DNA of 4,954 nt from a virus (lineage: Duplodnaviria; Heunggongvirae; Uroviricota; Caudoviricetes), in the IMG/VR virus record IMGVR_UViG_2579779052_000005; one strand, given 5' to 3'. A model generated the notes under the pieces. It worked only from the letters and a program-made list of their open reading frames with translations. It was not told the DNA's origin and made no database searches. The position numbers were made by a program, and so were the translations under genes. Positions 1 through 4,954 of the stretch are shown piece after piece. Numbering within the stretch: the stretch's first letter is position 1; each line of letters opens with the position of its first letter.

Positions 1-294
1 GTTGCGCACGTATTCGGTGAACGCACTATGGCGACGCTGGGGCGTCTTATGAGCCTGCTGTCACCCTTTGACGTGGTGATATGGATGACGGATGGCTGGC
101 CGCTGTATGAATCCCGCCTGAAGGGAAAGCTGCACGTAATCAGCAAGCGATATACGCAGCGAATTGAGCGGCATAACCTGAATCTGAGGCAGCACCTGGC
201 ACGGCTGGGACGGAAGTCGCTGTCGTTCTCAAAATCGGTGGAGCTGCATGACAAAGTCATCGGGCATTATCTGAACATAAAACACTATCAATAA
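1..294 (+). CDS. insB: IS1 transposase InsB reading frame, C-terminal part (5'-truncated by window edge)
   Basis: ORF track 28..294 is the Met-initiated tail; the frame is open from base 1 and matches InsB as I recall it. Stop TAA at 292-294. Confidence 0.93.
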
Positions 295-309
295 GTTGGA
301 GTCATTACC
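287..309. repeat. IS1 right terminal inverted repeat (IRR)
   Basis: atcaataagttggagtcattacc; its reverse complement ggtaatgactccaacttattgat matches the IRL at 4472-4494 at 18 of 23 positions, including the shared core ccaactta-tgat. Confidence 0.9.
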
Positions 310-521: not shown

Positions 522-1481
522 TTAATTTACCATCAGTCTTAGAGCCAGTTCGTCCGGATAGGGATCGAAGTAATTCTGTGTAAGCAAGTAATCATTAGGA
601 TACTCACCCAGATAATGCTTCAGCAGAGTCAACGGCGCAAGAAGAGGTAATGTGCCAGAACGATAGTTAAGTATAACCTCGCTCAACTCTTTACGCTGGC
701 GTGTACTTAAGTAGTTACTAAAATACCCCTGTATATGCATCAGCACATTCGTGTGATTTTTACGTGATGCAGGTTTTCTGAGAATCGCCATCAGCTTATC
801 ACGATACACCTCAAAGTATGATTCAAGATCCGCCCACTCGTGTATTGCAGCCACAAATGGTCCCATATCTTTATAGCCTGTCTGACTATGCGCCAACAAC
901 TGAAGCTTATAACGACTATGAAAAGCCAATAACTCTCTTCTTGATAATTTCTCCTTGTAAAGGTGATTGAGCTCATGCAAAGCAAAAACTCTTTCAACAA
1001 AATTCTCACGAAGCACTGGATCATGTAATCGCCCATCCTCTTCAACCGGTAGCCAGGAAAACTTTTCCATCAAAGTGCTCGTAAATAGTCCCACTCCATC
1101 TTTACGACCTCGATTACCATTTTCATCATAGACACGCACGCGCTCCATGCCACAGCTGGGAGATTTAGCACAAACCACAAACCCCGATACATCCTTTAAT
1201 TTGTCCATATAAGAACGACTAAACTCTGTCATTCTCTCTGTCACATCCTCATTCTGGTCGTGGCTGAAACACATCCGTATATTTCCTTGCGTCGAGCGCA
1301 CAAGACGTAGAGCAGGACGCGGAACTGGCAGCCCTATAGCCATTTCCGGACATACTGGTCTGAATGTTACCCATTCCACTAATTTGTCCATTAAAAAGTC
1401 AGCTCTTTTGTGACCACCATCAAAACGAACAGCAGAACCGGCCAAACAACCGCTGATTCCAATCACAGGTTTTTTTATCAT
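522..1481 (-). CDS. DUF523 (TudS-like 2-thiouracil desulfurase domain) / DUF1722 (YbgA-like) fusion protein, 319 aa
   Basis: The N-terminus (IGISGCLAGSAVRFDGGHKR ... VCPEMAIGLPVP ... VVCAKSPSCG) resembles DUF523/TudS with Cys at 12, 44 and 104. The C-terminal half (HSQTGY...HTNVLMHIQGYF...YRSGTLPLLAPLTLLKHYL...YLLTQNYFDPYPDELALR) resembles DUF1722/YbgA. GGAGG lies just upstream of the ATG at 1481, though the spacing is short. Recognition is from memory, not a search. Confidence 0.8.
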   Translation of the reverse strand: MIKKPVIGISGCLAGSAVRFDGGHKRADFLMDKLVEWVTFRPVCPEMAIGLPVPRPALRLVRSTQGNIRMCFSHDQNEDVTERMTEFSRSYMDKLKDVSGFVVCAKSPSCGMERVRVYDENGNRGRKDGVGLFTSTLMEKFSWLPVEEDGRLHDPVLRENFVERVFALHELNHLYKEKLSRRELLAFHSRYKLQLLAHSQTGYKDMGPFVAAIHEWADLESYFEVYRDKLMAILRKPASRKNHTNVLMHIQGYFSNYLSTRQRKELSEVILNYRSGTLPLLAPLTLLKHYLGEYPNDYLLTQNYFDPYPDELALRLMVN

Positions 1482-1673
1482 ATCCTCCCCCTTGACTAAT
1501 TCATTAACACATAAACTGTGTAGTGCACGGAATAAATTGCCTTTCTGGCGTCATCACTGACAATTTTTCTGTTATGGACTATTCCTAATATAGTATGAAA
1601 GTTCTTTAAGTGATCGGTCGTAATCATCTATCTTTCATACTTACTCTCAACTATCAAAAGTACAGGATTTATT

Positions 1674-2198
1674 ATGAAGTTATGGCCTGTGTTGACTGGC
1701 ATTGCGCTCTCTTTCACTCTTATAGCATGTAAGGCCCCGACACCACCTAAAGGTGTGCAGCCGATTACAAATTTTGACGCCAACCGCTACCTCGGAAAAT
1801 GGTATGAAATAGCTCGCCTCGAGAACCGGTTCGAACGTGGTCTGGAACAGGTCAGCGCTACTTATGGAAAACGGAACGACGGAGGGATTCGTGTACTTAA
1901 CCGTGGATACGATCCAACGAAAAATAAATGGAGCGAGAGCGAAGGTAAAGCATACTTTACTGGAGATACTAAAACTGCAGCGTTGAAGGTTTCGTTTTTT
2001 GGCCCCTTCTATGGTGGCTATAATGTAATCAAACTGGATGATGAGTATAAGTATGCTCTTGTCAGTGGTCCGAACAGAGAATACCTATGGATTCTGGCAA
2101 GGACCTCAACTATTCCAGATAAAGTAAAAGCAGACTATGTGCGAACCGCTCAAAAGTTGGGATTCAATGTCAATGAATTATTATGGGTTAAACAATAA
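1674..2198 (+). CDS. blc: Blc-family outer-membrane lipoprotein (bacterial lipocalin), 174 aa
   Basis: The translation aligns along its whole length with E. coli Blc as I recall it (shared blocks NFDA.RYLG.WYEIAR...RFERGLE.V.ATY...SEGKAYFTG...AALKVSFFGPFYGGYNVI.LD.EY..ALV.GP.R.YLWIL.RT), at roughly 60% identity. Lipoprotein signal peptide with lipobox LIAC (Cys19) and Lys at +2, which predicts outer-membrane sorting. AGGA lies 7 nt upstream of the ATG. Confidence 0.9.
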   Translation: MKLWPVLTGIALSFTLIACKAPTPPKGVQPITNFDANRYLGKWYEIARLENRFERGLEQVSATYGKRNDGGIRVLNRGYDPTKNKWSESEGKAYFTGDTKTAALKVSFFGPFYGGYNVIKLDDEYKYALVSGPNREYLWILARTSTIPDKVKADYVRTAQKLGFNVNELLWVKQ

Positions 2199-2226: not shown

Positions 2227-2253
2227 AAAAAAACCAGCCTTTGGGGAGGCTGG
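2227..2253 (-). terminator. Rho-independent terminator acting on minus-strand transcripts (between convergent quuD and blc-like genes)
   Basis: Perfect 7-bp inverted repeat ccagcct (2234-2240) / aggctgg (2247-2253) with a 6-nt loop. On the minus strand the hairpin is followed directly by a run of 7 U (complement of aaaaaaa at 2227-2233). On the plus strand it is followed by cuaaauc, so it is a weak terminator at best for blc. Confidence 0.6.
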
Positions 2254-2353
2254 CTAAATCAGGAAACAAGCTGTTATATGATAATAACTACGTTGCGATT
2301 CCAACATTTAAAATGTTAGACTAATGACAATCAGACAGCAACTTTTCCTTTAA

Positions 2354-2731
2354 TTATTTCGAACAATCAGCATCCATCTCCAATCGGAGATCCAACACCA
2401 TCAGCATACCCTCCACTACGCCCTCAGCTTTCTGGAGCATCCTGCCAACCCAACAATCAGATCGCCCATGCTTACGTGCAAGCGCCATAAAAGTCATGCC
2501 GCCGACATAATAGTCCACCAATAAATCATGCAAATCGCTGTTGTTCTTTTTCAGACGGGCCATGCACCCGCAAATGATCATCGCGTCATCGTCACAACAT
2601 TGTGGGCGAGATTTTACTTTTGAAGGAATTAATCCCTTAAAACCGGCGGCAATGGACGACCAGGTCACATCTTCATGATTATTAGCCGCCCACGCTCCCC
2701 AACGCTCAAGAACCATCTGAATATCACGCAT
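2354..2731 (-). CDS. quuD: Lambdoid prophage late-gene antiterminator Q (QuuD-like), 125 aa
   Basis: Translation [88 protein letters not shown]... matches DLP12 QuuD as I recall it. The ORF track's N-terminal extension MWSKL comes from a TTG; the likely true start is the ATG at 2731-2729, with GGAG 8 nt upstream. Confidence 0.88.
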
Positions 2732-2816: not shown

Positions 2817-2954
2817 TCATACTCCTGCTCCTGTCAGGGTTTTGGCGTAATTCTTCAGTATTCGGTAATCGGTCAAAACAGAACCGGGAAAATGATATAA
2901 GTGCAGGCGCACCCAGCGGCGGCGAAGACGTTCTGCCATATAAGACTCAAACAT
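2817..2954 (-). CDS. ylcG: YlcG-like small prophage protein, 45 aa (alternative internal start at 2939 gives 40 aa)
   Basis: Not in the ORF track (too short). Hand translation of the minus strand gives [45 protein letters not shown]. The ATG at 2954-2952 overlaps the rusA stop (TGATG). Size and position between rusA and quuD match ylcG in DLP12; the sequence itself is not verified from memory. Confidence 0.5.
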   Translation of the reverse strand: MFESYMAERLRRRWVRLHLYHFPGSVLTDYRILKNYAKTLTGAGV

Positions 2955-3316
2955 CATTCATCTCCCAGTTCAGTGATGGTCAGCTCCAGCTTCCCACCTT
3001 TGGTAACGGGCATCTTCACAACACGGTAATCAACGACCTGAACATCATCCAGCCAGAAACCTGCTTTGGTAAGTGCGTCAAAAGCAGCTTTTTGCAGATT
3101 ATCCAGGTCACGGCGACGGCGATCCGGCATGTGACACTCAATGCGGATTTTCACAGGAATAGCCAGGCCGATATCCAGCATTGCGTTTTTAATGATTCGG
3201 GCGACGTTATCGCGGTATGCCTGCCCCTCTGCGCTGATGTGCGTGCGCCCGCGATTATGGCGGTAATAGCGATTATTGCTCGGAGGCCAGGGTAATGTGA
3301 TGCTGTAGGTATTCAC
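2954..3316 (-). CDS. rusA: Holliday-junction resolvase RusA (crossover junction endodeoxyribonuclease), 120 aa
   Basis: Translation [108 protein letters not shown]... is near-identical to E. coli RusA as I recall it. Asp70, Asp72 and Asp91 are present. GTG start at 3316 overlaps the ybcO stop (GTGA). Confidence 0.93.
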
Positions 3317-3603
3317 GCCTTAATAACCCCCTCTTTCAGCCAGATAACCTGTGTTCTCGCCATATCTTCCAGCGCGCATTCTTTTGCATACTCAGCATCG
3401 ACAAAATGTGTGCGGCGGTCGATTTCGTCGTGACAGGCAGAACATGCAATGGTGGCAATCAGGTCTGGCGGTTTGATACCGGTACCGCACAATCCAGCCA
3501 GCCGGATATGTGCCAGTACAGACGTCTCAGAATTGCCATTACATACGCCAGGGATTCTTACCTGGCATTCCCGACCACGCGCTGCTTTTCTCAAATCAGC
3601 CAT
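3313..3603 (-). CDS. ybcO: YbcO (DUF1364 family, putative Cys-rich nuclease), 96 aa
   Basis: Translation [96 protein letters not shown] matches DLP12 YbcO. The ORF track starts 13 codons upstream, but the ATG at 3603-3601 is preceded by AGGAGG at a 5-nt spacing (minus strand gcaAGGAGGaatcATG). Confidence 0.88.
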
Positions 3604-3766
3604 GATTCCTCCTTGCTGCCAGTCGCAACCATTTTTTATCAACCAGGCTGGCGGTATACCCTAGCAGTGTTGGTATTTCGGATGGCTTCAGCTCAGGCTT
3701 ACGCTTACGACGATTTGGTACTCTGTAGATGTGTCCGTTCATGACCCGAATAAGCGGTGTAGTCAT
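3596..3766 (-). CDS. ninE: NinE-family small phage protein, 56 aa
   Basis: Not in the ORF track. Hand translation gives [56 protein letters not shown]. The ATG overlaps the ybcN stop (TAATG) and the 3' end overlaps the ybcO start by 8 nt (ATGGCTGA). Position between ybcN and ybcO fits nin-region synteny. Confidence 0.75.
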   Translation of the reverse strand: MTTPLIRVMNGHIYRVPNRRKRKPELKPSEIPTLLGYTASLVDKKWLRLAARRNHG

Positions 3767-4221
3767 TACGCCTCCTGCTTGTCGCGCAGCAGCTGGAACT
3801 CGCAGCTCTGCGGAATAGTCAGGCGGCAGCCAATATTCATCGCCCAGGCTTCAACCTTACACAGGAAGACATACATCTCTCCGGTATCAAGATCGGAGGT
3901 ATGGCGTAACGACTGGATCGTAGTGACTTCGCCGGTTACGACATCAACCAGGTCCTTGGTTTCATAACCGAGGTATGTGTGTTTGAGAGCATCTTTTACC
4001 CATGCTGCAGTAGCGAACGATTCCCCCCTGCTGATGAGGTACTCACTGATTTCGCTGTACCACATGTGGCTGAGTGCATTCTGGGAAAGACTGCGTCTTT
4101 CGCGCCACGGTTTAAGCACCATGCGAAAGCATTTGCCGTCCTCCAGATAAGGCTGGATCTGCTGACCGATAGCGGTGAAGTTACCGCGATGTAATTTGAT
4201 GCCGTCTTGTGGGAGGTTCAC
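3766..4221 (-). CDS. ybcN: YbcN (DLP12-type prophage DNA base-flipping protein), 151 aa
   Basis: Translation [66 protein letters not shown]... matches E. coli YbcN as I recall it. GTG start at 4221 with GGAGGT 5 nt upstream. Confidence 0.9.
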
Positions 4222-4471: not shown

Positions 4472-4494
4472 GGTGATGCTGCCAACTTACTGAT
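4472..4494. repeat. IS1 left terminal inverted repeat (IRL)
   Basis: ggtgatgctgccaacttactgat; imperfect inverted repeat of the IRR at 287-309. Confidence 0.9.
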
Positions 4495-4526
4495 TTAGTG
4501 TATGATGGTGTTTTTGAGGTGCTCCA

Positions 4527-4802
4527 GTGGCTTCTGTTTCTATCAGCTGTCCCTCCTGTTCAGCTACTGACGGGGTGGTGCGTAACGGCAAAAGCACTGC
4601 CGGACATCAGCGCTATCTCTGCTCTCACTGCCGTAAAACATGGCAACTGCAGTTCACTTACACCGCTTCTCAACCCGGTACGCACCAGAAAATCATTGAT
4701 ATGGCCATGAATGGCGTTGGATGCCGGGCAACCGCCCGCATTATGGGCGTTGGCCTCAACACGATTTTCCGCCATTTAAAAAACTCAGGCCGCAGTCGGT
4801 AA
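4527..4802 (+). CDS. insA: IS1 InsA (transposition inhibitor / DNA-binding protein), 91 aa
   Basis: Translation [91 protein letters not shown] matches InsA with its zinc-finger-like CxxC...CxxC N-terminus. Confidence 0.95.
4778..4784 (+). other. IS1 programmed -1 ribosomal frameshift site (A6C slippery heptamer)
   Basis: aaaaaac at 4778-4784, lying in the insA zero frame as tta-aaa-aac, 16 nt before the insA stop. Confidence 0.8.
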
Positions 4803-4954
4803 CCTCGCGCATACAACCGGGCAGTGATGTGATTGTCTGCGCTGAAATGGACGAACAGTGGGGCTACGTCGGTGCTAAATCACGTCAGCGCTGGCTGTTT
4901 TACGCGTATGACAGGATACGGAAGACGGTTGTTGCGCACGTTTTCGGTGAACGC
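4778..4954 (+). CDS. insB: IS1 insB' reading frame, 5' part (-1 frame relative to insA; 3'-truncated by window edge)
   Basis: The -1 frame from the slippery site reads [60 protein letters not shown], matching InsB and running into the same InsB segment seen at the start of the window. It has no start codon of its own and is expressed as an InsAB' fusion. Confidence 0.85.

Follow-up and report, generated by a model that had tools for sequence, protein, structure and literature searches.

A probable prophage allele of the tRNA 4-thiouridine desulfidase RudS in a cargo slot of lambdoid phages of Escherichia coli

We analysed a stretch of 4954 bases (called here, at its full length, the window) and observed that it was 99.8% collinear with the chromosome of E. 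coli strain CUWW06. Most of its genes are on the minus strand. These are ybcN (3766-4221), ninE (3596-3766), ybcO (between ninE and rusA), rusA (2954-3316) and ylcG (2817-2957), together with a gene for an antiterminator Q of the Q21/Q82 type (2354..2731 with the RefSeq start; Phage_antitermQ E 2.5e-51, and the Q21 structures 6P18 and 6JNX at E 1.9e-8). A blc paralogue encoding a 174-aa outer-membrane lipocalin lipoprotein is on the plus strand (1674..2198; Lipocalin_2 E 7e-43, and 313.5 bits against 267 for the NCBIfam Blc model). Beyond it, on the minus strand again, is the gene that concerns us here (522..1481), an open reading frame of 319 aa with an ATG start, which we refer to as rudS. 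Escherichia phage 1H12 was among the phage matches of the window. Both ends of the window fall at the same point inside an IS1 element, the pattern left when a short-read contig breaks off in a repeat.

A Shine-Dalgarno sequence of rudS, GGGGGAGGA (1483..1491, minus strand), could be read directly from the sequence, 2-10 nt upstream of the ATG. The gene is flanked by two short open reading frames of 65 aa and 43 aa (324-521 and 1496-1627, both on the minus strand), whose counterparts in phage IdasGreatGrand are annotated as 'hypothetical protein'. Pfam gave no match for either of them, and nothing suggests that they are real genes.

The rudS product had two Pfam matches, both far above the curated cut-off. 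PF04463, a family earlier called DUF523 and at present named 2-thiour_desulf (2-thiouracil desulfurase), covered residues 7-149 (1035..1463, minus strand) with an E value of 3.1e-40, and PF08349 (DUF1722) covered residues 192-309 (555..908, minus strand) with an E value of 2.2e-40. An earlier note on this DNA had proposed a TudS-like domain fused to DUF1722, and this HMM check showed that it was right. PF04463 followed by PF08349 in one polypeptide is also the architecture that defines RudS (TudS/DUF523 and then DUF1722, each over more than 80 residues at E < 0.001; PMC11417400). The assignment of the C-terminal half to the family of YbgA held for the domain, which is shared, but not at the level of the whole protein, since its score for PRK10167, the NCBIfam YbgA equivalog, was 190.8 bits and below the cut-off of 237. 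The protein is named 'YbgA family protein' in RefSeq, and the same name is carried by the representative (99% identical to it) of the 90%-identity cluster to which it belongs (2556 members).

By sequence, the sole solved relative of the protein was TudS (PDB 6Z92). TudS was also the only significant structural match of an AF2 model of the protein (mean pLDDT 80.7), in which the DUF1722 half was all-helical. When this C-terminal half was compared with solved structures, no specific relative was found. The model was poorly defined in the loop of residues 14-25, which has been linked to contact with tRNA. We also came across a 403-aa E. coli protein (P0002) in which the RudS domains are joined to GGDEF (PF00990); with one member on one contig, it probably reflects a rearrangement or faulty annotation.

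The active site was examined with a set of 150 cluster representatives of homologues, from which 77 full-length sequences (mostly 35-56% identical to the window protein) were aligned. The profile made from these 77 matched TudS 6Z92 at E 1.8e-15. Cys12 (codon at 1446..1448, minus strand) aligned with TudS Cys10, and Cys44 (1350..1352, minus strand) with TudS Cys43; each column held cysteine in 76 of the 77 sequences. These two had been correctly named as cluster ligands by the earlier note, from the contexts GISGC and VCPEM. Its third ligand, Cys104 (in VVCAK), was wrong. The column of this residue corresponds to TudS Lys98 and is variable (K in 39, M in 16 and C in 12 of the 77), and the misassignment arose because the residue number of TudS had been transferred. 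The cysteine that aligned with TudS Cys104 was instead Cys110 (1152..1154, minus strand), in the motif S107-P-S109-C110-G, where cysteine was found in 74/77. The proposed triad therefore agreed with TudS in two of its cysteines and not in the third. We conclude that the predicted [4Fe-4S] ligands are Cys12, Cys44 and Cys110, and the same three are given for the phage 1H12 enzyme, RudS_vir, in Table 1 of PMC11417400.

The other catalytic residues could be placed in the same alignment. Glu46, two codons downstream of Cys44, aligned with TudS Glu45 and was invariant (77/77). Ser107 was in the column of TudS Ser101 (conserved in 76/77) and Ser109 in that of TudS Ser103 (69/77), while Arg55 was conserved in 76/77 homologues. 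The cysteine set of RudS and its set of one glutamate, two serines and one arginine are thus all present. Although the protein has the fold and active site of TudS, at 319 aa and with a second domain it lies outside the single-domain TudS class (about 150-166 aa). In the DUF1722 half, Ser239 and Arg240 aligned with residues 243 and 244 of a Pseudomonas-type proxy (P0149), matching Ser243 and Arg244 of the Pseudomonas putida enzyme RudS_KT.

To describe the surroundings, we used 80 IMG/VR prophage loci with rudS; the IMG/VR and genome scans were made by closer-relative alignment, and the counts given here and below therefore cover close relatives. The order Q, blc (on the opposite strand), rudS, an AraC-like gene and holin was seen in 71 of the 80 loci, and in 68 of these 71 a lysozyme gene came after the holin. 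The blc gene was beside rudS in every one of the 80, divergently oriented and at a fixed distance of 193 bp, with a gap of about 162 bp between Q and blc. The isolated phages IdasGreatGrand and 1H12 had the same order. The phage setting that had been suggested for the gene was borne out, and can now be described as a lambdoid prophage module.

In phage 4A7 the nin and Q genes are near-identical to those of the window, and the slot between Q and holin contains a porin gene, which indicates that the slot holds interchangeable cargo. This porin is OmpC/NmpC-like and is encoded on the opposite strand (1706-2788 of locus L093). The GC content of rudS and blc was 43-44%, that of the AraC-like gene 31%, and that of the nin genes about 51%. 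Judged by its position between the Q gene with its terminator and the holin gene, by its deviant GC content and by the alternative cargo in 4A7, rudS is a cargo gene (moron) of the Q-to-lysis slot. Between the window and 1H12 alleles, dN/dS was 0.106 for rudS (dS 0.30) and 0.074 for blc; the substitution pattern indicates that rudS is under purifying selection.

The gene that follows rudS in the 71 loci encodes a 243-aa regulator of the AraC family (3766-4497 in L008 and 7130-7861 in L002, both on the minus strand). It is outside the window, beyond the left IS1. The regulator was 54% identical to ECs_0287 of the Sakai prophage Sp1, which is at thrW. If ECs_0287 is PatE, the AraC-like neighbour would probably belong to the PatE/Psr type of prophage regulators, with blc or rudS as possible targets. 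The MerR/LitR-type light regulator of chromosomal rudS genes was absent from the phage module. A search of the neighbourhood for phr or thiouridine-synthesis genes, which had been advised for this gene, found none near rudS; its conserved partners were instead the Blc-type lipocalin and, in intact prophages, the AraC-like regulator.

Downstream of Q, and just past the blc stop, scanning and folding identified a tR'-like intrinsic terminator with a hairpin and U-run (2232..2255, minus strand). Its RNA fold had an energy of -21.6 kcal/mol (z -4.8), and it was conserved in 1H12 and IdasGreatGrand. The alignment also brought out a block, ATATAACAG (2271..2279, minus strand), common to this module and to 4A7 with its different cargo, as a candidate -10 and start region of pR'. 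The block and the terminator probably make up pR' and tR' for a Q21/Q82-type antiterminator, although no convincing match to the -35/-10 hexamers of a sigma-70 pR' was seen downstream of Q. The intact phage has a second terminator immediately ahead of the holin gene, and on the late strand the cargo has a terminator on either side. This layout is as expected of a late promoter and terminator, with a cargo that would be read only when Q acts.

Other signals were also looked for. The promoter-like sites upstream of rudS were weak (9/12 matches) and no commoner than in shuffled sequence. A LexA/SOS box near rudS was considered and rejected, as the one match with a single mismatch was inside the coding region, and such matches were fewer than expected by chance. 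Searches of the window for Rfam families and tRNA genes gave no tRNA and only a sub-threshold match, to RF02278 at the terminator (28.6 bits vs 50), which we regard as spurious.

The prophage in the window is a remnant at the thrW/ykgM region. Its immunity (pR), replication, lysis and structural genes are absent. Because the pR/immunity region and the lysis genes have been deleted, Q-driven expression is doubtful in this remnant. The left IS1, of which the window contains the 3' part (1..309, plus strand; DDE_Tnp_IS1 in Pfam), entered 212 bp beyond the stop of rudS and parts this gene from the AraC-like one. It is a simple insertion, with the target duplication ACCAATCTG at 310-318, a perfect 9-bp duplication in the collinear CUWW06 chromosome. 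The right IS1 is partial (4472-4954), has the same orientation as the left one, is without a target duplication and adjoins kil-gam-bet-exo. These last two features point to an IS1-mediated deletion of the immunity/replication region. We also considered an IS1-flanked composite transposon carrying rudS, and rejected it, since a 9-bp duplication goes with the left IS1 by itself and is lacking at the right one.

We then estimated how widespread the gene is. Of 5426 complete E. coli genomes, 1136 (about 21%) had it, 1064 of them with at least 80% of the gene length. The blc-rudS module as such was found in 1152 complete E. coli genomes (1044 at 80% length or more). According to the RudS paper (PMC11417400) as well as a 2026 review, RudS is missing from E. 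coli. This is true of K-12 and BL21, but not of about one fifth of the complete genomes. Among 50,697 phage records only 12 contained a full-length RudS, and all of these were lambdoid phages of E. coli.

Outside E. coli, the nearest relatives were chromosomal proteins of Citrobacter, Serratia, Klebsiella and Enterobacter (about 69-76% identity). In Citrobacter, rudS is the last gene of a cluster with SnoaL-like, short-chain dehydrogenase, amine oxidase, DUF1365, cyclopropane-fatty-acid (CFA) synthase, DUF2878 and DUF3833 genes. A hidden lipocalin in this cluster was considered and rejected, as the 175-aa open reading frame there was not homologous to Blc. In 15 of 80 enterobacterial chromosomal loci (L103-L129), a Blc paralogue sharing 74-81% identity with that of the phages was encoded upstream of rudS on the opposite strand. 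Its gene directly adjoins rudS in Kluyvera cryocrescens (L116). In Enterobacter, an mlrA-like MerR regulator gene and a transthyretin-like gene lie between the two, and in Pseudescherichia and Buttiauxella the whole CFA-synthase cluster does. The phage module looks like a captured blc-rudS pair that has lost its MerR-type regulator. A 93%-identical rudS fragment was also seen on a 3.2-kb contig binned as Candidatus Nanosynbacter (L122); most likely this is DNA of an E. coli prophage that was wrongly assigned to the MAG.

E. coli has thiI, and its tRNA carries s4U8. The fusion of TudS and DUF1722 has been known since 2024 as RudS, a [4Fe-4S] desulfidase that converts s4U at position 8 of tRNA to uridine (PMC11417400), so that the gene family, the mechanism and a phage orthologue are already published. 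In that work, six RudS genes overexpressed in E. coli lowered tRNA s4U by 4.7- to 26-fold. RudS_KT lost its activity on mutation of the three cysteines and of Glu51, Ser111, Ser113 and Arg60; its DUF1722 domain binds the tRNA anticodon arm, with Ser243 and Arg244 contributing to tRNA binding (PMC11417400). Together with the alignments, this makes it very probable that the gene in the window is a lambdoid-prophage allele of RudS, the tRNA 4-thiouridine desulfidase; the s4U desulfidase activity of this particular allele is predicted from conservation. The view of the gene as a thionucleoside fusion of unknown function is outdated, since RudS has a demonstrated substrate, s4U in tRNA, and growth on 2-thiouracil was supported by none of the RudS enzymes tested (PMC11417400).

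It could be argued that the phage RudS is mainly a TudS-like enzyme of salvage or detoxification, acting on free 4-thiouracil, 4-thiouridine or 4-thio-UMP from tRNA turnover, and that its activity on tRNA is a side effect of overexpression. The catalytic domain is, after all, a bona fide TudS fold. RudS_vir was cloned and lowers E. coli tRNA s4U, the evidence being from overexpression only; it removed less s4U than the Salmonella enzyme RudS_ST at a similar protein level, and had the shortest lag on 4-thiouracil among the tested RudS (PMC11417400). With this weaker removal of tRNA s4U and the short lag, a greater role of the phage enzyme on free 4-thiouracil compounds is a serious rival reading. 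However, no RudS equalled stand-alone TudS in rescuing a uracil auxotroph on 4-thiouracil, and all of them lowered tRNA s4U, which stand-alone TudS left unchanged, as did YbgA (PMC11417400). The DUF1722 domain is also conserved, including Ser239 and Arg240 at the positions used by RudS_KT for tRNA binding, and purifying selection has acted on the whole gene. We therefore consider a mainly salvage role unlikely.

That rudS is inert cargo, carried along as a prophage decays and now of no use to either cell or phage, is more improbable still. Such a fate would be consistent with the state of the remnant, cut by IS1 and stripped of most of its phage genes, and with promoter-like sites that do not exceed the shuffled background. 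But the open reading frame is intact with every catalytic residue in place, the low dN/dS holds across phage lineages already separated by a dS of 0.30, the gene persists at 80% or more of its length in the E. coli genomes counted above, and isolated phages (IdasGreatGrand and 1H12) carry it. Finally, we give next to no credence to the proposal of the earlier note that the enzyme deals with thionucleoside or near-UV damage alongside the adjacent rusA, ybcN and ybcO, for which physical closeness in the window and the near-UV sensitivity of s4U could be cited, because these genes, together with ninE, form an ordinary lambdoid nin region upstream of Q that has the same order in phages with the porin gene and without rudS (such as 4A7), because Q, the terminator and the oppositely oriented blc stand in between, and because on bacterial chromosomes rudS is accompanied by blc, the mlrA-like MerR gene or the CFA-synthase cluster and never by rusA.

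Returning to RudS as a tRNA 4-thiouridine desulfidase, its mechanism has been shown for TudS and RudS_KT, and can be transferred conditionally to the window protein. The N-terminal TudS domain would hold a [4Fe-4S] cluster on Cys12, Cys44 and Cys110, and the fourth iron, being free, would bind the s4U sulfur (position 8 or 9 of the tRNA). Arg55, Ser107 and Ser109 would orient Glu46 for the activation of a water molecule, which would displace the sulfur through a [4Fe-5S] intermediate and yield uridine and sulfide. DUF1722 would dock the anticodon arm, and in this way a small-molecule desulfidase would become a tRNA enzyme.

In the intact phage, the position of rudS past the tR'-like terminator and its late-gene orientation would put its transcription under the action of Q, with a possible contribution from a weak promoter belonging to the gene itself. 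A lower s4U content would remove the near-UV chromophore of tRNA. The link to near-UV biology, which had been suggested earlier, is supported in so far as s4U is the near-UV target in tRNA. With less s4U there should be less UVA-induced crosslinking to C13 in tRNA, less growth delay, and a smaller ppGpp burst and stringent response; overexpression of RudS did shorten the UVA-induced growth delay (PMC11417400). The beneficiary may be the lysogen, or phage production in late development. Tentatively, then, RudS may be an auxiliary editor of the tRNA pool in lambdoid phages, expressed in the lysogen or as part of the Q-dependent late operon. By stripping s4U8, it would keep the UVA that accompanies induction by solar UV from crosslinking tRNA, stalling translation and raising ppGpp. 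It would thereby secure phage protein synthesis, or give about one fifth of E. coli strains a UVA tolerance that K-12 lacks, and the blc-rudS pair would have been captured en bloc, as a piece of a photo-oxidative stress island of enterobacteria.

As the enzyme is known, the value of the present analysis is in its context. It adds the corrected ligand, a conserved cargo module with its probable chromosomal source, and the count in E. coli genomes. Since rudS is found in a sizeable minority of these genomes, UVA growth delay, tRNA s4U and the near-UV stringent response may differ by strain, and prophage content could explain strain differences in near-UV responses. It is also among the few cases of a temperate phage with an eraser of a tRNA modification, and it occupies the slot that holds the Shiga toxin genes in Stx phages.

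Among the known systems, the closest characterized one is RudS_vir (1H12 gp66, YP_009909557). It has the same length as the window protein (319 aa), and the two were identical at 297 of 319 positions (93%) without gaps. None of the 22 substitutions was at a ligand or catalytic position, and Cys12, Cys44, Cys110, Glu46, Arg55, Ser107 and Ser109 are shared. The protein of phage IdasGreatGrand was closer still (99.4% identical). RudS_vir is also encoded in the same slot, in the order Q, blc (on the opposite strand), rudS, a 243-aa gene (the AraC-like regulator in related prophage loci) and holin. The difference is in the state of the phage, as the gene for RudS_vir belongs to the inducible phage 1H12, whereas rudS in the window belongs to a defective prophage cut by IS1.

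RudS_KT (Pseudomonas putida PP_0741) and RudS_ST (Salmonella STM1389/ORF319) have the same TudS-DUF1722 fusion with the catalytic set conserved. Both have tRNA s4U desulfidase activity in vivo, and RudS_KT in vitro too. Chromosomal rudS genes are found with MerR/LitR-type light regulators and in photolyase or CFA-synthase clusters, while the phage copy is without these and is part of a late operon. TudS (DUF523Vcz, PDB 6Z92-6ZW9) is a single domain of about 150-166 aa (chain of 166 aa) without DUF1722, and its substrates are free thiouracils and 4-thio-UMP, with s4U in tRNA left untouched. E. coli YbgA (b0707), a stand-alone DUF1722 protein encoded upstream of phr, shares the other half of RudS and is without the TudS domain.
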